Of a stretch of DNA of 64,000 nt, positions 85 to 50,969 are shown piece by piece. The notes under the pieces are model-generated. The model was not told the origin of the DNA. It ran no database searches and saw nothing but the letters and a program-made list of their open reading frames with translations. The translations under genes and the position numbers were made by a program. The number at the start of each line of letters is the position of its first letter. The stretch's first letter is position 1. Origin of the DNA: Spirochaetia bacterium UBA5763 (GTDB taxonomy: Bacteria > Spirochaetota > UBA4802 > UBA5550); assembly GCA_002418835.1 (NCBI GenBank), contig DIEX01000031.1, positions 137,617 through 201,616 of the forward strand, written 5' to 3'.

Positions 85-1422
85 ATGGTTTCAGGCGGTA
101 TTGCTTTACTGCTTCTGCTTATTGCGGTCATACTCATTGTTTACGCCACAGGCAGGGCAAAGATAAATGCCTTTGTTGTTCTCATTATGATTGCCTTTAT
201 TTACGGCCTCTCCATTGGCATGCCGGCTATGGATGTAATCAAGGCGATTAAAGATGGTTTTGGCGGTACTCTTGCCAGTATCGGTATAGTTATCATTGCC
301 GGTACAATCATGGGGTATATCCTGGAAAAAACAGGCGCAGCTCTCGCAATGACAAGAGCAATCCTTAAGATTGTCGGGAAGGATCAGGCTCCTCTTGCGA
401 TGAACATCGCGGGTTATATCACATCTATTCCTGTATTCTGTGACTCAGGTTATGTTATTCTTACTCCTCTCAACAAGGCTTTGTCAAATGAGACGGGTAA
501 ATCAATGGCAGTAATGGCTGTAGCTCTTTCAACAGGTTTGTATGCAACTCATACAATGGTTCCGCCTACACCGGGGCCTATCGCTGCTGCCGGCGCACTG
601 GGCGCTGATGTTGGTACAGTTATTGTTTTCGGTCTTATTGCGTCTATTCCTGCTGCATTATCAGGATGGCTATGGGCAAATTATATCGGAAAGAAATATG
701 ATATTAAGCCTGAGGTTGAGGAGAGTTATACTCACCTTATAGAGAAGTACGGTAAGCTCCCCAGCACATTCATGTCATTTATGCCGCTGGCTCTTCCGAT
801 ATTTCTTATTCTCCTTAAATCTATTTCGGCGTTTCCGACTCTCCCTTTCGGGCCTAAGGACAGCACCGCTTATATTGTGATCAACTTTATAGGGGACCCT
901 GTGACTGCTCTTATGATAGGGGTTATTGTGAGCCTTTTCCTTGTCAAGAGAGAGGAACTTGGTACTGCTGTTGAAACATGGATGGGGCATGGTATAAAAG
1001 ATGCCGCTATTATCCTTGCGATTACAGGAGCAGGTGGTGCTTTTGGTAAAGTTCTCCAGGGCTCGCCTATGGTCGAGTTTATCAAGATAAACATGGGGGG
1101 ATTGAATCTCGGTCTATTCCTTCCATTTATAATTTCGGCAGCACTTAAGTCAGCACAGGGTTCATCCACTGTGGCTATTATTACAACAGCATCGATCCTC
1201 GCACCGCTGCTTGGCACACTGGGGCTTAATCCGGCACTCACTGTTGTTGCAATAGGCGCGGGTTCAATGGTTGTTTCTCATGCCAATGACTCTTACTTCT
1301 GGGTTGTATCGCAGTTTTCGAATATGCCTGTTAATACGGCATATAAGATTTACACAACTGCAACGGCCATTGAGGGTACTGTGGCCTTTGTGACATGTTT
1401 TATAATCAGTCTATTTTTGTGA
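85..1422 (+). CDS. GntP-family (gluconate/organic-acid:H+ symporter-type) permease
   Basis: 445-aa ORF, polytopic hydrophobic throughout, GGAGG RBS 8 nt upstream of ATG; composition and length typical of the GntP/DsdX permease family; a rho-independent terminator follows. Confidence 0.6.
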   Translation: MVSGGIALLLLLIAVILIVYATGRAKINAFVVLIMIAFIYGLSIGMPAMDVIKAIKDGFGGTLASIGIVIIAGTIMGYILEKTGAALAMTRAILKIVGKDQAPLAMNIAGYITSIPVFCDSGYVILTPLNKALSNETGKSMAVMAVALSTGLYATHTMVPPTPGPIAAAGALGADVGTVIVFGLIASIPAALSGWLWANYIGKKYDIKPEVEESYTHLIEKYGKLPSTFMSFMPLALPIFLILLKSISAFPTLPFGPKDSTAYIVINFIGDPVTALMIGVIVSLFLVKREELGTAVETWMGHGIKDAAIILAITGAGGAFGKVLQGSPMVEFIKINMGGLNLGLFLPFIISAALKSAQGSSTVAIITTASILAPLLGTLGLNPALTVVAIGAGSMVVSHANDSYFWVVSQFSNMPVNTAYKIYTTATAIEGTVAFVTCFIISLFL

Positions 1423-1439
1423 CCGCTCCTTTATTCCTA

Positions 1440-1471
1440 CTCCTTTCCTCATTGATGGGGAAAGGAGTTTT
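1440..1471 (+). terminator. rho-independent terminator after permease gene
   Basis: hairpin TCCTTTCC-loop-GGAAAGGA followed by GTTTT, immediately 3' of stop at 1422. Confidence 0.55.
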
Positions 1472-1550
1472 GAGGTAAAGGCGGATTTTTTATTGTTTGA
1501 AAAAAAGTTTATAACTTGGGGTTGTCTAAAAAGTCAGATTTTCTTGTTTT

Positions 1551-1694
1551 TGTCATTCCGGTTTCACCCCAAGAGTGCTTCTTCGCTGCGCTCAGGGCGT
1601 GCACACTTCAATTCGTGCAAATACCGGAATCTCCTGATTAAATCAGTTGTATGAGATACCGGCATTTCGCTTCGCTACAGCCGGTATGACAAAG
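1551..1694. repeat. structured intergenic repeat (MITE/REP-like), copy 1
   Basis: TTGTCATTCCGG ... CCGGTATGACAAA termini; internal hairpin CCGGAATCTCC..ATGAGATACCGG; shares modules with copies at 4442, 41721, 45055, 49112. Confidence 0.8.
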
Positions 1695-1733
1695 AAATTA
1701 CTTTTAGGTCAGCCTCGCTAAGGGGGGGGGGAG

Positions 1734-2408
1734 ATGTTTGCAGATTTTCAAAAATGGTTATACCGGAGAATGGCTTTGAACTTTATGACAGCAGGTAAAC
1801 CGGGTAAAGCTGAAAGGTGGTATAAAAAACTTGAGAAATTTGAACCGGACAGTCTTGAGGTGCTTCATAACCTTGGTGTAATTTATATTGCTTTAAACAG
1901 ACATTCAGAGGCGGAGAAATACCTGCTGAAAGAGATAGATCTCTATGGAGAATCGGAGATAAGGGACAGGGTGCTTGGTGATCTTTACTATGTCAGCGGC
2001 AACAGGGATATGGCAGGACGTTTCTATGGTAAAGCTCTCACCCTTCTGCAAAACGGAAGCAGAGATAAGAGTACAGAGAGATTCCTCCGTAGAAGAATAA
2101 AACACTGCAGTGAGCATTTATCTTATGAAAAAGCTATGGAAGGTATGAAGCATTATGAAGATGGTGCAGCTCTGTATGCTAAAGGTGATTATGACGAAGC
2201 CCTTCATAGCTATAATAAAGCTGTTCGTTGTGACAACTCGTCTTATCTGGCAATGAATGCGGCAGGGACACTACTCATGAACAACATAAAAGATTACGAG
2301 CAGGCAAGGAATTTTTTCAGGAAAGCTCTGGATCTCGCGGATATTCCGCTTGTTAAACATAATCTCGAGCTGGCGGAGTATAAGATTAAGAAGAACGGGG
2401 TGAAGTGA
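1734..2408 (+). CDS. TPR-repeat protein
   Basis: 224 aa with recurring TPR-like helical repeats (W-LG-Y-A-F-A-P motifs, e.g. LHNLGVIYIALNRHSEAEKYL, AALYAKGDYDEALHSYNKAV); G10 tract forms its RBS; stop overlaps start of next gene. Confidence 0.6.
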   Translation: MFADFQKWLYRRMALNFMTAGKPGKAERWYKKLEKFEPDSLEVLHNLGVIYIALNRHSEAEKYLLKEIDLYGESEIRDRVLGDLYYVSGNRDMAGRFYGKALTLLQNGSRDKSTERFLRRRIKHCSEHLSYEKAMEGMKHYEDGAALYAKGDYDEALHSYNKAVRCDNSSYLAMNAAGTLLMNNIKDYEQARNFFRKALDLADIPLVKHNLELAEYKIKKNGVK

Positions 2409-3775
2409 TGGAAAACCGGAAAGCCATGGATATTCTTGAGTCTGTTTTCAGGGCCGGTCTCAAACGGATAGACCCCCTGTTGATGATGAAAAATCAGCTC
2501 ACACTGAAAGGTGATGAGTTAACTATAGATACAGGTACAGAGCGGCATTCTGTTGACCTGGGAAATGTGGAGCGTATACTTGTTACGGGAATGGGGAAAG
2601 CTTCAGCTCGAATGGCGCTGGGACTGGAACAGGTACTTGGAGACAGGTTAGACAGCGGAATTATTGCTGTTAAGTACGGGCATGTTGAGACTCTTAAAAA
2701 GATTAAGCTTATGGAGGCGGGGCACCCTGTTCCTGACCGTGGTTCAATCAATGCTGCAAATGAGATTATATCCTATGTAAAAGGCGCGGGTGATAAAGAC
2801 ATAGTGATTAACCTTGTTTCAGGTGGCGGCTCATCTGTAATGAGCTTACCGTATTCCGGTGAGGGTGGTATGTCTATATCCCTTGAGGAGAAACAGGCTG
2901 TTTCAAAACTCCTGCTTGCATGCGGCGCTGATATACATGAAATTAACTGTATAAGAAAACATCTTTCGGGCGTGAAAGGGGGGAGGTTCGCCGAGATGAT
3001 CTATCCGGCGCGCTGCTTCAGCCTTATTCTTTCTGATGTTGTGGGTGATAACCTCGATGCAATAGCTTCCGGGGCCACTGTGCCTGACAGCACATCATTC
3101 GGCGATGTTATAAATATTGTCAGCAGGTATTCTCTTGGAGATAAACTGCCTGAAAATGTTATGAAGATTTTTCATGCCGGGGCAGAGGGTAAAATACCTG
3201 ATACGCCTAAACCAGGCAGTGCCATATTCAGCAGGGTGCGTAATATACTTATCGGCACCAATTACCATGCTTTACTTGCCTCTGCTGAAGAAGCCAGGAG
3301 GCTCGGATGTAAAACTGAAGTGCTCACATCTGTGCTCACAGGGGAAGCCAGGGAGATAGCCCATTTTTTCGCTGCAATGGGGCGTGATGCCTGCACATGG
3401 AGGGACAGCTGTGACCTCCCGATATGCATTATCGCAGGAGGGGAAACCACTGTGACACTGAAGGGGGATGGCCTTGGAGGGAGATGCCAGGAGATGGCTC
3501 TTTCATTCATTGATAATCTGAGGAAGACCCCGCTTATTGCTGACAGAATATTTTTTCTTGCAGCAGGCACTGACGGCAACGACGGGCCCACTGATGCTGC
3601 CGGGGCTTTCGCGTCGATGGAGCTTTTCAGGAAAGGGAAAGAACTTGGTCTTGATCCGGAAAAGTTTATAACTGCAAGCGACTCGTACCATTATCATGAA
3701 AAGACAGGGGGATTGCTGAAGACCGGCCCCACGGGGACTAATGTCTGTGATATCCATATAGTGCTTGTTGTATAA
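2405..3775 (+). CDS. glycerate kinase, MOFRL family (glycerate 2-kinase / hydroxypyruvate reductase-like)
   Basis: 456 aa; N-terminal GMGKASARMA P-loop-like motif and overall DUF4147+MOFRL architecture; start overlaps upstream stop (GTGATGG). Confidence 0.75.
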   Translation: MMENRKAMDILESVFRAGLKRIDPLLMMKNQLTLKGDELTIDTGTERHSVDLGNVERILVTGMGKASARMALGLEQVLGDRLDSGIIAVKYGHVETLKKIKLMEAGHPVPDRGSINAANEIISYVKGAGDKDIVINLVSGGGSSVMSLPYSGEGGMSISLEEKQAVSKLLLACGADIHEINCIRKHLSGVKGGRFAEMIYPARCFSLILSDVVGDNLDAIASGATVPDSTSFGDVINIVSRYSLGDKLPENVMKIFHAGAEGKIPDTPKPGSAIFSRVRNILIGTNYHALLASAEEARRLGCKTEVLTSVLTGEAREIAHFFAAMGRDACTWRDSCDLPICIIAGGETTVTLKGDGLGGRCQEMALSFIDNLRKTPLIADRIFFLAAGTDGNDGPTDAAGAFASMELFRKGKELGLDPEKFITASDSYHYHEKTGGLLKTGPTGTNVCDIHIVLVV

Positions 3776-3776
3776 T

Positions 3777-4364
3777 TCATAAACCCTCAATGCGGAATGA
3801 TTTGACTATGTCAGTGCTCTGTTTCAGGTATTCAGTTGCGCTCCCTGCCAGGGGGCTCCTTTTGGGGAAAGAGACAGTCAGCTTGACAACCGCCATCTTT
3901 TCTCCGTTTTTTGATGATAATACACCGGTCACTGAAAAGCCCGATCTTTTTCTATCTTCAAATAGATGATAAAAGAACCGGGCGTTGTGTGTCGCATCCT
4001 CATATCCGTCTGATCTGAGAAAATGGAGCGTAACTTTATCCTGAACTCTATTTTTCCTGTAAAAATCAGTCTCCTTTTTTACAAGCTCAGTTGAACCGGC
4101 TGCGTAATAGTTAACATTAAGATCAACAGTATGAGTGTTATACCCTGCTGTATATGAGATAATTCTGCTGTCTTCAGGCGGATTCTCCATTTCCGCAGGA
4201 GTCCAGGTGACAGGGAGATCAATGTGAAAATCGCCATAATGCTTCTTCTCTCTATTATCAAAATCTATTTTTTGTGATTTCCCCGGATTGTCAGCACCGT
4301 ATAATGTCAAATTAAAAGCGAACATCATTATAATCACTGGTATAAACTTTTTCTGCTTCATCAT
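3777..4364 (-). CDS. secreted hypothetical protein (signal peptide)
   Basis: ORF 3777..4391; more likely start is ATGATG at 4364 preceded by GGAG RBS; N-terminus MMKQKKFIPVIIMMFAFNLTLYGA is a signal peptide. Confidence 0.5.
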   Translation of the reverse strand: MMKQKKFIPVIIMMFAFNLTLYGADNPGKSQKIDFDNREKKHYGDFHIDLPVTWTPAEMENPPEDSRIISYTAGYNTHTVDLNVNYYAAGSTELVKKETDFYRKNRVQDKVTLHFLRSDGYEDATHNARFFYHLFEDRKRSGFSVTGVLSSKNGEKMAVVKLTVSFPKRSPLAGSATEYLKQSTDIVKSFRIEGL

Positions 4365-4441
4365 GTCACTCCATTTATAATACTTAATCAATGTTTATTC
4401 CTAAAGATAGTTTTTAGTGCAAAGCTATAAATTTAGTTTTC

Positions 4442-4578
4442 TGTCATACCGGCTGTAGCGTGCGCGCCCTGAGCGTAGCGAAGAAGTACCCTTGGGGTAA
4501 AATGCCGGAATCTCATAATATTGTTCTATGAGATTCCGGCATTTGCACGAACTGATGATGCAAAACCGGAATGACAAA
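4442..4578. repeat. structured intergenic repeat, copy 2 (inverted/module-shuffled relative to copy 1)
   Basis: TGTCATACCGG...CCGGAATGACAA termini; contains GCGCCCTGAGCGTAGCGAAGAAGTACCCTTGGGG module (reverse complement of copy 1 module) and hairpin CCGGAATCTCATA..TATGAGATTCCGG. Confidence 0.8.
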
Positions 4579-4804
4579 AATTTAAGCTTATAATAATTAT
4601 ATAGCATAATTTTTTTTTAGAGTTTTTTATCTTTATAATTCTTTTAGGAATTATTACTGATACTTAATATATATACATTCCCGTTGTTTCGCATAATTTT
4701 TTATTTCTGAAACTTCTTGACTGATGTCTCTTTGAACTGATTATTGGAATAATACAAACAGTCATCTGCTGCTCTTTATTTGCGGCAGCGGCACTAGAGG
4801 CTAT

Positions 4805-5569
4805 ATGACACAATCAGTTTTCACTCTTACAGAAACATATACAGTCCGATCTTATGAAACAGATGTTAATGCACGTGCAACAATTCAGACAATGGTTAAT
4901 TATCTGCAGAACAGCGGATTTAACCATGCACTGATCCTCCGGAAATCGGGCGGGCTCTCTCACGATCCATCCACCGCATATTTTCTTACACGGCAGAAGG
5001 TGAGGATTTTCCGCTACCCTGAATGGCAGGAGACAATAACAGTAAATACATGGCTTGATCCCCGCATAGAAAAATATGCTGTCCGTGAATTCGAAATTAT
5101 TGATGCTGCCGGAGAGGTAATCGGGTGCGCCACTAATTCAGCATCTTTCTATGATCTCAAAGAGAAGAGGGTGATACCAGCATCACAGCGTATGCATAAT
5201 ATTCCTGTGCCGCCCCGCAGCCGCGCACTGGACGATCCATTTGATTCAATACCCCGTCCCTCTGTTGCAGAGTTTTCTGTGGAGTTTACTACACGCCTTG
5301 CTGACCTGGATATGTACCGTCACGTGAATAATGTCGTCTATGTTGAATGGGCTGTTGAAACACTCCCCCGCAGTGTATGGGAAGGTTGGACTCTTCGCGA
5401 TCATGAAATAAACTTCCGCTCTGAAACATCTATTGATGATGTTATACTCTCCGAAGCGGAGGAGATAACATGCAGTGATACCCGTATATTTCTGCACAGG
5501 CTCACGCGTAAGTCTGACGGAAAAGAAACAGCCCTTCTCAGAACATGGTGGCATAAGAATATAAAATAA
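4805..5569 (+). CDS. acyl-ACP thioesterase (FatA/FatB-like)
   Basis: 254 aa; N-terminal hotdog with TYTVRSYETD...ATIQTMVNYLQ and C-terminal second hotdog with YRHVNNVVYVEW motif typical of acyl-ACP thioesterases. Confidence 0.75.
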   Translation: MTQSVFTLTETYTVRSYETDVNARATIQTMVNYLQNSGFNHALILRKSGGLSHDPSTAYFLTRQKVRIFRYPEWQETITVNTWLDPRIEKYAVREFEIIDAAGEVIGCATNSASFYDLKEKRVIPASQRMHNIPVPPRSRALDDPFDSIPRPSVAEFSVEFTTRLADLDMYRHVNNVVYVEWAVETLPRSVWEGWTLRDHEINFRSETSIDDVILSEAEEITCSDTRIFLHRLTRKSDGKETALLRTWWHKNIK

Positions 5570-5579
5570 AGGGGGAATC

Positions 5580-6347
5580 GTGATGCAGAAGATGAAGATA
5601 AACAATACAGGTCTTATTGCAGGGAGGTGGCCTCTTGATCCGTCACTCCCGTCGCTTGTTTTTATACACGGCGCCGCGGGTTCAAAGCAGTTCTGGAAAG
5701 AGCAGGTGAGCGGTCTCTCTGACTGCTGCAATCCCATTGCTGTTGATCTCCCCGGGCATGGAGATGACAGCGGCAGCGGCTTTGATACAGTGGATGCTTA
5801 TGCGGATGCTGTAGAGAGTTTCATAGAAGAAGCAGGTATAGTTACACCCGTTGTATGCGGCCTCAGCATGGGGGGGGGCATTGTACAGAAACTGCTGCTT
5901 GACGGGAGACTTAAATATAAAGCCGGGATAATTTTAAATTCAGGGGCACGGCTTAAGGTTATGCCTGCAATATTTGAACTTATACAGAATAACTACAGCG
6001 GCTATGTTTCATCACTCCCGGCAATGGGTGCTTCAGATAAGTGTGATCCCTCGAAGCTTGCAGAAGTAATAGCAGACGCTGAGAAAAGCCGGCCTGAAAT
6101 AACTTTTAGTGATTTCACCGCATGCAACATTTTTGATGTAACAGAGAGACTCGGAGACATTAAGGTGCCGCTCCTTGTACTCACAGCAGAAGAGGACAAG
6201 CTTTCACCTGTGAAGTACGGGAGGTTTATTCATGAGCGAGTGACCGGGTCAACATTCCTCACAATTCCAGGGGCCGGGCATTTTTCCCCGGTTGAGAAAC
6301 CTGATGAGGTTAATGAAGCAATAAGAGCATTTGTTACATCCAGGTAA
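5580..6347 (+). CDS. alpha/beta-fold hydrolase
   Basis: 255 aa; GLSMGG nucleophile elbow (GxSxG), C-terminal GAGH motif; contains a G9 homopolymer in the elbow codons. Confidence 0.75.
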   Translation: MMQKMKINNTGLIAGRWPLDPSLPSLVFIHGAAGSKQFWKEQVSGLSDCCNPIAVDLPGHGDDSGSGFDTVDAYADAVESFIEEAGIVTPVVCGLSMGGGIVQKLLLDGRLKYKAGIILNSGARLKVMPAIFELIQNNYSGYVSSLPAMGASDKCDPSKLAEVIADAEKSRPEITFSDFTACNIFDVTERLGDIKVPLLVLTAEEDKLSPVKYGRFIHERVTGSTFLTIPGAGHFSPVEKPDEVNEAIRAFVTSR

Positions 6348-41720: not shown

Positions 41721-41869
41721 TGTCATTCCGGTTTTGTCGCAGACAAATACCGGAATCTTAATGATAGGAATTAATTTCTGAAAACAGGGGGTAATTTCTT
41801 TTACTTTAACATTCCGGCAGTGCAGCAACGATGCTTGCCTCTGTTCGCACTCCGGCCGGGATGACAAAG
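41721..41869. repeat. structured intergenic repeat, copy 3
   Basis: TTGTCATTCCGG ... CCGGGATGACAAAG termini; internal ATACCGGAATCTTAAT and CATTCCGGCAG modules. Confidence 0.7.
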
Positions 41870-42060
41870 CTTAATTATTTCGTAAAATGCTATAGTCGGC
41901 AAATCCATCTGCGTTCATCTGTGTCTATCTGTGTAAAATTCTTTATTTTAATTCAGCCTGACATTCATGCTTCAATTCTTAACATTATTTTAACATAAAT
42001 CTTATCTAAACTGCATCTGCCGGGGATTATATCCACTCATCATAAGTTCGGATATATAAT

Positions 42061-44968: not shown

Positions 44969-45054
44969 TAATAATCACATAATTTCTTAATATAATTTTT
45001 ACATGAATATATTTAAGATTAGTTACTATAGCAAATAACGAAATGATTATCACG

Positions 45055-45166
45055 TTGTCATTCCGGCCGTAGTGACAACGAAGTGCCGGAATCTCATAAA
45101 ATTATTACAATGAGATTAGCTTCCAGCTCTTCCTGCGGTCGCCCACAGCCTTCGCGGGAATGACAT
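45055..45166. repeat. structured intergenic repeat, copy 4 (upstream of pstS)
   Basis: CGTTGTCATTCCGG..TGACAACG hairpin, GCCGGAATCTCATAAA..ATGAGATTAG, ...CGCGGGAATGACA terminus. Confidence 0.7.
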
Positions 45167-49111: not shown

Positions 49112-49195
49112 TTGTCATTCCTGCGGAGGCAGGAATCTCATGGGATATTTTTTATGAGATACCGGCATTCCGCTGCGCTTCAGCCGGTATGACAA
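49112..49195. repeat. structured intergenic repeat, copy 5 (short form)
   Basis: TTGTCATTCCTGCGGAGGCAGGAATCTCAT..ATGAGATACCGGCATTCCGC..CAGCCGGTATGACAA; shares 3' module with copy 1. Confidence 0.75.
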
Positions 49196-49250
49196 TGCAC
49201 TAATCATTTCGTAAATTGCTATAAGTAAAAATTATTTGTCAGGTAGTATA

Positions 49251-50969
49251 ATGAAAAAGTTCTGGATACGAATCGGCTTAAGAAGCAAGATAATGATCAT
49301 GGGCACCGCATCTCTCCTCTTTTTTGTTACTGTGACTCTCTTATTCTTTATCCCTTCAATAAAAACTGACAGCCTTAATAAAAAGCGCAATGCTCTCAGG
49401 GATACTGTTGAAATATCAATAAGCCTCATGGATGCGCTTAAGTTTGAATCTGAAAATGGAAGGATGAGCGAAGATGAAGCAGCTAACAAAGCTGTTTATT
49501 ATACAGGGAAGTTCAGGTATGGCGCTGAGAAGATGGACACCGTATGGCTTATCAATGGAGAAGGAGTTATATTTTCAATGCCCTTCAGGGAGCATCTTGT
49601 TGGTAAAAATATCTCCTCACTTGCAAAACCGGGGGAGAGAAATGTTTATAAAGAGATGCTCGATCTCTGCAAAAAGCACGGCGATGGATTCATCGAATAT
49701 AAAGCTCAATATAAATCTGAAGCAACAAAAATTGTCCCTGTCATATCTTATGTTAAATTCTATGAACCGTATAATCTGGTAGCTGGTGCCTCTATATACA
49801 TTGAAGATATAAGAAATGAAATTTTCATTTTATACGTTAAAGTAATAAGTGCAACACTGATTATCTCTGTACTTTCACTGGTGCTTCTTTTTATAGCTTC
49901 AGGGAGAATAGTTAAACCGCTCAGAAAGATTGCTGATGGTATATCTGATGGTGATCTGAATACTGTGTTAATCACTGAACTTGAGGATGAAGTGGGGCTC
50001 CTTGTGGGGAGGTTCAACGCCTTTACCGGCAGTATTAAAGAGATCGTTATTGAGATAAAAGATACAACTTCTAAACTCGCGGAGTCATCAGAGGAACTCT
50101 CCTCTCTCTCTGAATCATTCGCAGGGCAGTCGGAAGAACAGAACAGGTACTCCGCTGAAGTTTCGCGCACTGTTGCAGATATAACCCATGAAGTTGAAAC
50201 AATAGCTTCGCAGATCGACGTTGAGTTTGAGAAGATGAGTCATCTTATTGATATACTCAATACACTGTCAGACATTATAGATCGTCTTGATAAGAGCGCA
50301 TCAGGTGCCCTTGATACAATCAGTAGTATTTCAGGGAGAGCAATGGACGGTGAGTCATCTCTGCGCAGGATGCTGGAGAGCTTTTCACGCATCGGGAAAC
50401 GTTCAGGCGACATGAATGAGATTGTAACCATGATTAATTCAATCTCAGACAATATAAATCTTCTATCGCTTAATGCCGCAATTGAGGCTGCAAGGGCCGG
50501 TAACGCGGGGCGCGGATTTGCTGTTGTTGCAGATGAAATATCAAAACTCGCTGACGCCACCTCCCGGAGTATAAACAGGATAAGCAGTATAATAACTGAT
50601 AATGATAAGGAACTGAAAGAAGGCTTCGGCCATGTTGAAAACACTGTGAAAAATATTGAAGCGATACTTGAAGGTTTCACCGGTGTGCGTCAGTGGATCG
50701 AGGAGTTCTCTTCTCAGATTAAAGATCAGATAGGTACAAAGGAGAGTATCCAGGTTGAGGTGCGGGAGATCCGTGACATGTCTGACATGATACGAAAAAC
50801 CACGCGCGACCAGAAAGACTCGGTGCAGGAGATCAATAAACTTATGGAGAGCATCAATGAAGGGACTGAGGCAATCAGTGCAGGGTCCGAGGAGCTTGCT
50901 ACAGGAGCAGGGGAGGTGACATCAATGGCAGAGGGGTTGAGAGAAAAGGTCGCGGTGTTTAAAGTATAA
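49251..50969 (+). CDS. methyl-accepting chemotaxis protein with sCache_2-like sensor
   Basis: TM, periplasmic domain ([11 protein letters not shown]...[21 protein letters not shown]), TM, HAMP, MCP signalling domain ([26 protein letters not shown]); ATG 49251 preferred over 49236. Confidence 0.85.

Follow-up and report, generated by a model that had tools for sequence, protein, structure and literature searches.

In Moraxella catarrhalis, a tract of nine or ten G residues in the leader of uspA1, between the transcription start and the ORF, modulates the expression level of this pathogen's surface adhesin; the tract is located tens of nucleotides upstream of the ORF and affects the mRNA level.

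In spirochaetes, the precedent for poly-G tracts is T. pallidum, in which they are associated with the putative porins named Tpr (T. pallidum repeat) and with a homologue of OmpW (PMC7864442). The T. pallidum tracts are located in promoters, either upstream of the transcription start or between the -35 and -10 boxes, and act on transcription, which is permitted by eight or fewer G residues (PMC7864442). Most of these tracts vary, and tracts of 7-11 G differ in length within isolates (PMC7864442). Some of them lie very near annotated start codons, and a translational role has been left open (PMC7864442), so that such a role is conceivable in the phylum. In Neisseria, translational phase variation is brought about by frameshifting in coding repeats, and intergenic repeats act via promoter spacing (PMC5320596, PMC5084427). 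The nearest documented case is the poly-G in the 5'UTR of M. tuberculosis espR, which affects translation via refolding of the UTR (PMC11898584). An established switch acting through the spacing between a Shine-Dalgarno (SD) sequence and the start codon was not found in the literature searched. The initial annotation of the DNA analysed here had presented such a spacing switch as a classical form of translational phase variation, a description that does not agree with the literature consulted, which has coding frameshifts or promoter spacing instead (PMC5320596, PMC5084427).

In the 64-kb window, which is the whole stretch of DNA that was analysed, ten consecutive G residues (G10) occupy positions 1722-1731 of the forward strand and end 2 nt before the ATG (1734) of a tetratricopeptide-repeat (TPR) protein gene, exactly where the initial annotation had placed them. 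The genes around the tract and the ribosome-binding region proposed for it are as follows:

85-1422, forward strand: GntP-family permease gene (gntP); Pfam GntP_permease 2.7e-107, TIGR00791 above the cut-off; synteny conserved in relatives
1719-1733, forward strand: full ribosome-binding region, TAAGGGGGGGGGGAG, proposed from the sequence and the pairing model
1734-2408, forward strand: tetratricopeptide-repeat protein gene, 224 aa; Pfam TPR_2 4.6e-20, TPR_1 1.7e-15, TPR_12 and others
2408-3775, forward strand: glycerate-2-kinase-like gene (DUF4147 + MOFRL; Pfam/NCBIfam); same arrangement in relatives

The tract is flanked on its 5' side by TAA (1719-1721), which is an in-frame stop, and on its 3' side by AG (1732-1733) and then the ATG, giving the local context CGCTAA-G10-AGATGTTTGC. 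Because of the in-frame stop, the tract cannot be coding in the TPR frame or belong to a longer version of the ORF. It spans -12 to -3 relative to the ATG, and the five-G registers within it leave gaps of 2-7 nt to the start codon. G10 is the longest homopolymer in the window, in which the expected number of runs of at least ten G is 0.014 (iid), 0.028 (first-order Markov) or 0.066 (second-order). The 9-G pattern has three overlapping matches, compared with 0.24 expected, and none of 100 dinucleotide-preserving shuffles reaches three. Two G-runs of at least nine residues occur in the window, one of which codes for Gly-Gly-Gly. An intramolecular G-quadruplex was considered and rejected, since a single run of ten G cannot give four tracts with loops.

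The start codon at 1734 is well supported, since M1 is invariant in 31 aligned homologues of 224-225 aa and the residues that follow it (8-21) are conserved. A total of 38 homologues of the 224-aa protein were detected in a large protein collection, nearly all of them 224-225 aa in length, and the NCBIfam matches were generic TPR matches only, all under the cut-off. Two homologues of 207 aa (P0003, P0008) were rejected as N-terminal variants, because the gene-caller had chosen Met18 and the upstream ATG and its SD are intact. No N-terminal hydrophobic segment or signal peptide is evident in the sequence of the TPR protein, which is presumed to be cytoplasmic. The ATG of the kinase gene overlaps the TPR stop codon (TGATG), which makes translational coupling of the glycerate kinase to the TPR gene probable. 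The order of GntP permease, 224-aa TPR protein, glycerate-2-kinase-like protein, a small divergent gene and acyl-ACP thioesterase (85-5569 in the window) is conserved across several uncultured Spirochaetota (L004, L006 and L032). The related loci come from uncultured Spirochaetota or Leptospirales-like MAGs, and contigs identical to the window come from the hydrocarbon metagenome PRJNA183510. Judged from its sequence and neighbourhood, the TPR gene appears to encode a cytoplasmic protein of a metabolic operon in an environmental bacterium, unlike a host-associated surface protein, and it does not belong to the surface, restriction-modification or host-interaction genes that are typical of contingency loci.

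Compared with tprE/G/J/F/I/L and tp0126 of T. pallidum, the locus likewise belongs to an organism of the spirochaete phylum, and its poly-G, within the range of 7-12 residues, precedes a gene (PMC7864442). It differs in that the tract lies beside the ATG of a tetratricopeptide gene in an environmental organism, whereas the T. pallidum tracts lie in the promoters of genes for outer-membrane proteins in an obligate pathogen; the gene here is neither a Tpr nor an outer-membrane gene, and the tract does not appear to lie in a promoter. The initial annotation had invoked a spirochaete precedent for TPR-type genes, in which two acronyms were conflated, as Tpr stands for T. pallidum repeat and not for tetratricopeptide (PMC7864442). 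The locus resembles Neisseria porA/opc/fetA and pilC in having a homopolymeric G/C tract at a gene and in the slippage mechanism that could act on it (PMC5320596, PMC5084427). However, the Neisseria tracts change the -35/-10 spacing or the reading frame, whereas the tract here is outside the ORF, with an in-frame stop upstream and no promoter hexamers found. With espR it shares a poly-G in the 5'UTR, the length of which would affect translation efficiency rather than transcription or frame (PMC11898584); unlike in espR, the tract is itself the proposed ribosome-binding site, and no convincing structure was found. The tract is also comparable to G-rich SDs (GGAGG/GGGGG) in its complementarity to the anti-SD and its location at the SD position of the orthologues, some of which have G5-G7. 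Unlike the usual G-rich SDs, it has twice the usual length, lies 2 nt from the ATG, offers about six registers and is located at the junction of a repeat insertion.

In the approximately 30 nt that precede the ATG at 1734, no other sequence with complementarity to the anti-SD was found, which bears out the earlier statement that G10 is the only SD-like sequence of the gene. In a crude survey of about 50 ORFs, most other genes of the window have an SD of the GGAGG type located 4-9 nt before the start, and in several the SD is a run of G5-G6 (e.g., starts 5583, 51401 and 63105). An SD is present at the orthologous position in all of the approximately 20 related loci, in the form of AAAGGTGAG, GGAGG, AGGAG or G5-G7:

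L003, 90.5% nucleotide identity: right arm of the repeat element as in the window, then TAA-G7-AAG-ATG
L004-L009, L017 and L031-L036, 80-83% nucleotide identity: intergenic region of only 92-152 nt, ending GTTTAATAAC-AAAGGTGAG-4 nt-ATG
L011, L012, L014, L018 and L022, more distant orthologues of lower identity: GGAGG or AGGAG
L010 (G6), L013/L020 (G6) and L015 (G5), more distant orthologues of lower identity: G-runs

SD-type G-runs elsewhere are G5-G7, and G10 is an outlier among them; its 3' edge is closer to the ATG than in any orthologue, and the longest G/C run in the 126 kb of related loci has eight residues. The tract is complementary to the anti-SD, lies at the expected distance of about 4-12 nt from a genuine start and stands where the orthologues have their SD, all of which are features of an SD, and the comparison suggests that it is very probably the SD of the TPR gene. 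SD function alone does not explain the length of G10.

The region between gntP and the TPR gene is 311 nt long in the window and comprises three features:

1440-1471, forward strand: terminator-like hairpin after gntP, consisting of CTCCTTTCC, a 10-nt loop and GGAAAGGAG, then TTTT; conserved in relatives
1496-1515, forward strand: last stretch homologous to the short intergenic region of the relatives in the alignment, TTTGAAAAAAAGTTTATAAC
1516-1721, forward strand: lineage-specific insertion, about 205 extra nt between the ancestral leader and the start codon; absent from the relatives at 80-83% nucleotide identity

Homology with the relatives extends from the gntP stop through the hairpin to GAAAAAAAGTTTATAAC, which ends at 1515, so that their whole intergenic region is matched up to the conserved TATAAC (1510-1515); in the relatives, the matching TAATAAC directly precedes AAAGGTGAG, 4 nt and the ATG. 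The 10-nt loop of the hairpin at 1440-1471 is longer than the 3-8 nt accepted by a consensus terminator scan, which therefore missed it. The insertion holds a stacked-hairpin repeat element, with a core from GTCATTCCGG (1552) to CCGGTATGAC (ending at 1690) and a right arm of 31 nt (1691-1721), which is common to L003 and ends with CGCTAA immediately 5' of G10. Further copies of the element are located at about 4443-4575 (reverse strand), 41722-41865, 45057-45164 (reverse strand) and 49114-49193, giving at least five in the window, and the terminal motif occurs 23 times there compared with 4.5 expected. The two-hairpin pattern matched same-strain loci only and is present in none of 34 other fetched loci; some 126 kb of related loci yielded no copy of the repeat family, and a search of Rfam gave no match at gathering thresholds, with only chance-level miRNA hits in 1400-1800. 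The element together with the G-run is restricted to the window strain and L003, while the locus L030 is unreadable there because its contig begins after the tract.

The explanation that we favour, and consider rather probable on the basis of these alignments and the pairing model, is that G10 is an SD element rebuilt at a repeat-insertion junction and buffered against small length changes. An ancestor would have had the short leader TAATAAC-AAAGGTGAG-4 nt-ATG. Between this leader and the start codon, a hairpin repeat element some 200 bp long would have been inserted, parting the start codon from the leader and the AAAGGTGAG site, and ribosome binding would now depend on the G-run that marks the right-hand junction. 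The anti-SD CCUCC, with a G·U wobble at its central U, could pair with the run in several registers, including those 4-7 nt from the ATG. The length of the run may subsequently have been changed by slippage in evolution, to G7 in the sister lineage and G10 here. In the alignment, the G-run is placed exactly at the junction between the insertion and the start codon, in place of the putative ancestral AAAGGTGAG, and both begin with AAGG. An attempt was made to find a target-site duplication or the exact end of the insertion and to derive the G-run from the ancestral AAGGTGAG, and the alignments obtained were too AT-rich and short. If this explanation is true, the locus would be an example of a gene that regained a ribosome-binding site after a mobile repeat landed in its leader, and of a homopolymeric SD that is intrinsically buffered against slippage. 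It would involve no new mechanism, and would call for caution with automated calls of phase variation from tract length alone.

The pairing model gives the anti-SD duplex energy for every register of tracts from G3 to G15, plus a spacing penalty in the RBS-calculator form, with constants after that literature. The 3' end of the organism's 16S rRNA lies outside the window, and the anti-SD was assumed to be canonical (CCUCC core, with a B. subtilis-like or E. coli-like tail), an assumption supported by the GGAGG sites before most of the window genes. For G10, both tails give a predicted duplex energy of about -11 kcal/mol, which is in the range of the canonical GGAGG sites of the window, and UAAGG at the 5' edge of the tract anchors the longest pairing register in the model. 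The best totals for selected tract lengths are as follows:

G5: 0.0 kcal/mol with the B. subtilis-like tail, -0.9 kcal/mol with the E. coli-like tail
G6: -8.1 kcal/mol with the B. subtilis-like tail, -9.0 kcal/mol with the E. coli-like tail
G7: -9.6 kcal/mol with the B. subtilis-like tail, -10.5 kcal/mol with the E. coli-like tail
G9: -11.3 kcal/mol with the B. subtilis-like tail, -11.6 kcal/mol with the E. coli-like tail
G10: -11.6 kcal/mol with the B. subtilis-like tail, -11.3 kcal/mol with the E. coli-like tail
G11: -13.1 kcal/mol with the B. subtilis-like tail, -10.9 kcal/mol with the E. coli-like tail

Over the lengths G7 to G15, the total spans no more than about 4.7 kcal/mol with the B. 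subtilis-like tail and 1.1 kcal/mol with the E. coli-like tail. The gain or loss of one G from G10 changes the modelled value by at most 1.5 kcal/mol; binding is weaker at G6 and collapses only at G5 or shorter. With the tract itself as the SD and its 3' end always 2 nt before the ATG, an added or removed G changes one distal register only, and since the anti-SD slides along the tract, a one-step slippage should not switch expression. The predicted effect of one such step on initiation is no more than about 2-fold, and marked weakening or silencing would need contraction by four or five bases. The spacing switch put forward in the initial annotation finds no counterpart in these values, and the tract may be at most a rheostat after several contractions, without switching by single residues. 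In the favoured explanation, a sliding anti-SD would leave initiation little affected by changes of one or two bases, so that the extra length would be tolerated drift rather than a programmed switch.

Among the other explanations, a contingency locus would mean that slipped-strand mispairing changes the SD geometry and renders the translation of the TPR gene and the coupled glycerate kinase stochastic among cells. G10 is above the length of poly-G instability in studied bacteria (PMC7864442) and is long enough to be hypermutable by the measure used for contingency loci, a poly-G/C of about eight or more residues. The occurrence of two G-runs of at least nine residues in the window, the difference between G7 and G10 in two lineages and the predicted weakening of initiation at G6 and its loss at G5 or shorter are also in line with such a switch. 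The switching by one repeat unit that characterizes contingency loci was not found in silico, however, as the tract lies outside the ORF, promoter hexamers were not found, the modelled change is no larger than 1.5 kcal/mol, and even for changes of two residues the predicted effect on initiation is at most about 2-fold. The apparently cytoplasmic nature of the TPR protein, its place in a metabolic operon of an environmental bacterium and the lack of a documented SD-spacing switch in the literature searched argue in the same direction.

The lengths observed in other sequences bear on the same question. G10 is also present in three other assemblies of the same strain (JGI 3300000568, Logan SRR5325341 and ENA ERZ922796/SRR636559), which match the window with 100% identity over 1.3-3.2 kb and come from at least two different runs. 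The four agreeing assemblies, which speak against a switch, are consensus sequences of one clonal population, and their agreement is weak evidence of stability. Look-ups of the exact protein returned only contigs 100% identical to the window, and a metagenome scan with the family alignment gave no close relatives among the matches listed. L003 has G7+AAG instead of G10; this difference accompanies 9.5% nucleotide divergence, so that an elevated mutation rate is not needed to explain it, and it resembles ordinary indel evolution. The only contig of a strain with 95% nucleotide identity (L030, Logan SRR33555247) starts at AG|ATG (window 1732), exactly at the 3' edge of the tract, which could be taken to favour a switch. 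The break was rejected as evidence of slippage, since a length polymorphism should leave shared G's at the contig end. Branching at a GAG- or AAG-type allele, a drop in coverage or end trimming are possible causes of it. The initial annotation had described the tract as slippage-prone and had proposed comparing its length between strains: G10 is long enough in principle, but no length variation appears across the four consensus assemblies of the window strain, and a different length was read in the related lineage L003. Phase variation at the tract is without positive support and seems improbable.

A neutral by-product of the insertion, or of a strain-specific expansion of G-runs, with the TPR gene poorly translated or otherwise initiated, appears no less improbable than the switch. 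The position of the tract exactly at the insertion junction is consistent with a by-product, as is the unusual coding G9 of the strain, a run length absent from the relatives. Such a by-product is difficult to reconcile with a TPR ORF that is intact and 100% conserved across assemblies, with a family that keeps an SD at this position in all relatives, and with the strong complementarity of the tract to the anti-SD.

A graded effect of tract length is slightly less probable still. The tract would then be a rheostat in a free-living anaerobic spirochaete, whose sliding SD, by stepwise contraction from G10 to G6/G5, tunes the translation of the TPR gene and the coupled kinase within the population. 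If true, this would place a contingency-type locus over a metabolic operon outside the host-pathogen setting, and real length heterogeneity would represent SSR-driven heterogeneity in a metabolic operon of an environmental non-pathogen, which is rarely documented.

It is similarly unlikely that the tract acts, rather than as an SD, on transcription, as part of a promoter or discriminator, or on mRNA structure, where pairing with upstream C/U-rich sequence would occlude initiation. Precedents for such action are T. pallidum tpr/tp0126 (PMC7864442) and M. tuberculosis espR (PMC11898584), and Neisseria porA/opc may be likened to them. In the minimum-free-energy fold of 1423-1790, the partner of the tract is the CU-rich CCGCUCCUUU (1423-1433), about 300 nt away. 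In other copies of the element, the position aligned to the tract edge reads TGCTATAAG, which faces outward and resembles an extended -10 box, and beside the tract it reads CGCTAAGG. Between the tract, at -12 to -3, and the ATG, however, a -10 box, a transcription start and an SD could not be accommodated; with only 2 nt separating the tract from the ATG, transcription starting 3' of the tract would yield neither a leader nor an SD. A promoter scan found no promoter-like hexamers around the tract or in 1423-1733, and the tract is assumed to be transcribed as 5'UTR. The local fold is no better than that of shuffled sequence (z = -0.28), and the 300-nt pairing, for which comparative support was not found, crosses the terminator-like hairpin.

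A sequencing or assembly artefact, such as poly-G from two-colour chemistry or a miscalled homopolymer length, is highly improbable. In its favour, homopolymer lengths are error-prone on several platforms, and L030, a Logan contig, stops at the tract. Against it, the tract lies inside contigs and is flanked by unique sequence on either side, G10 recurs in the window and three assemblies from at least two different runs, and a related G7 occupies the same site in a different lineage.

In addition, several features near the tract and elsewhere in the window were observed. An 11-codon uORF (1686-1721, forward strand; ATG ACA AAG ... CGC TAA, peptide MTKKLLLGQPR) ends with the TAA that directly adjoins G10, with 12 nt between this stop and the TPR ATG. 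No SD was found before the uORF ATG at 1686, which belongs to the terminal repeat of the element. Two C/U-rich, anti-SD-like sequences, GCUCCUUUAUUCC and CUCCUUUCC, are located just 3' of the gntP stop (1423-1450); the first pairs with the G-tract (1719-1733) in the fold, which would matter only on gntP read-through transcripts.

The second long G-run, G9 at 5870-5878 (forward strand), lies inside an alpha/beta-hydrolase gene (5580-6347) and encodes ATG GGG GGG GGC (M-G-G-G) of the GLSMGG nucleophile-elbow motif. A slip by one residue in either direction would frameshift the hydrolase. At this site, the distant orthologue L013 has ATG GGG GGC GCT (G6). Two long G-runs within 64 kb could point to a propensity of this particular strain to expand such runs.

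The repeat element belongs to a MITE/REP-like family of stacked hairpins that is abundant in intergenic regions. Its units, GTCATTCCGG...CCGGAATC and GAGATACCGGC...GCCGGTATGAC, have interchangeable loop modules, and some copies have outer arms TATAGC...GCTATA. Other assemblies break their contigs inside the element (L029 and L002). The right arm of three copies ends with TTGCTATAAG/TGCTATAG (49205-49225; 45020-45040, reverse strand; 41885-41897), which resembles an outward-facing extended -10 box, e.g., some 30 nt ahead of the ATG at 49251, and the repeat element might supply promoters to downstream genes.
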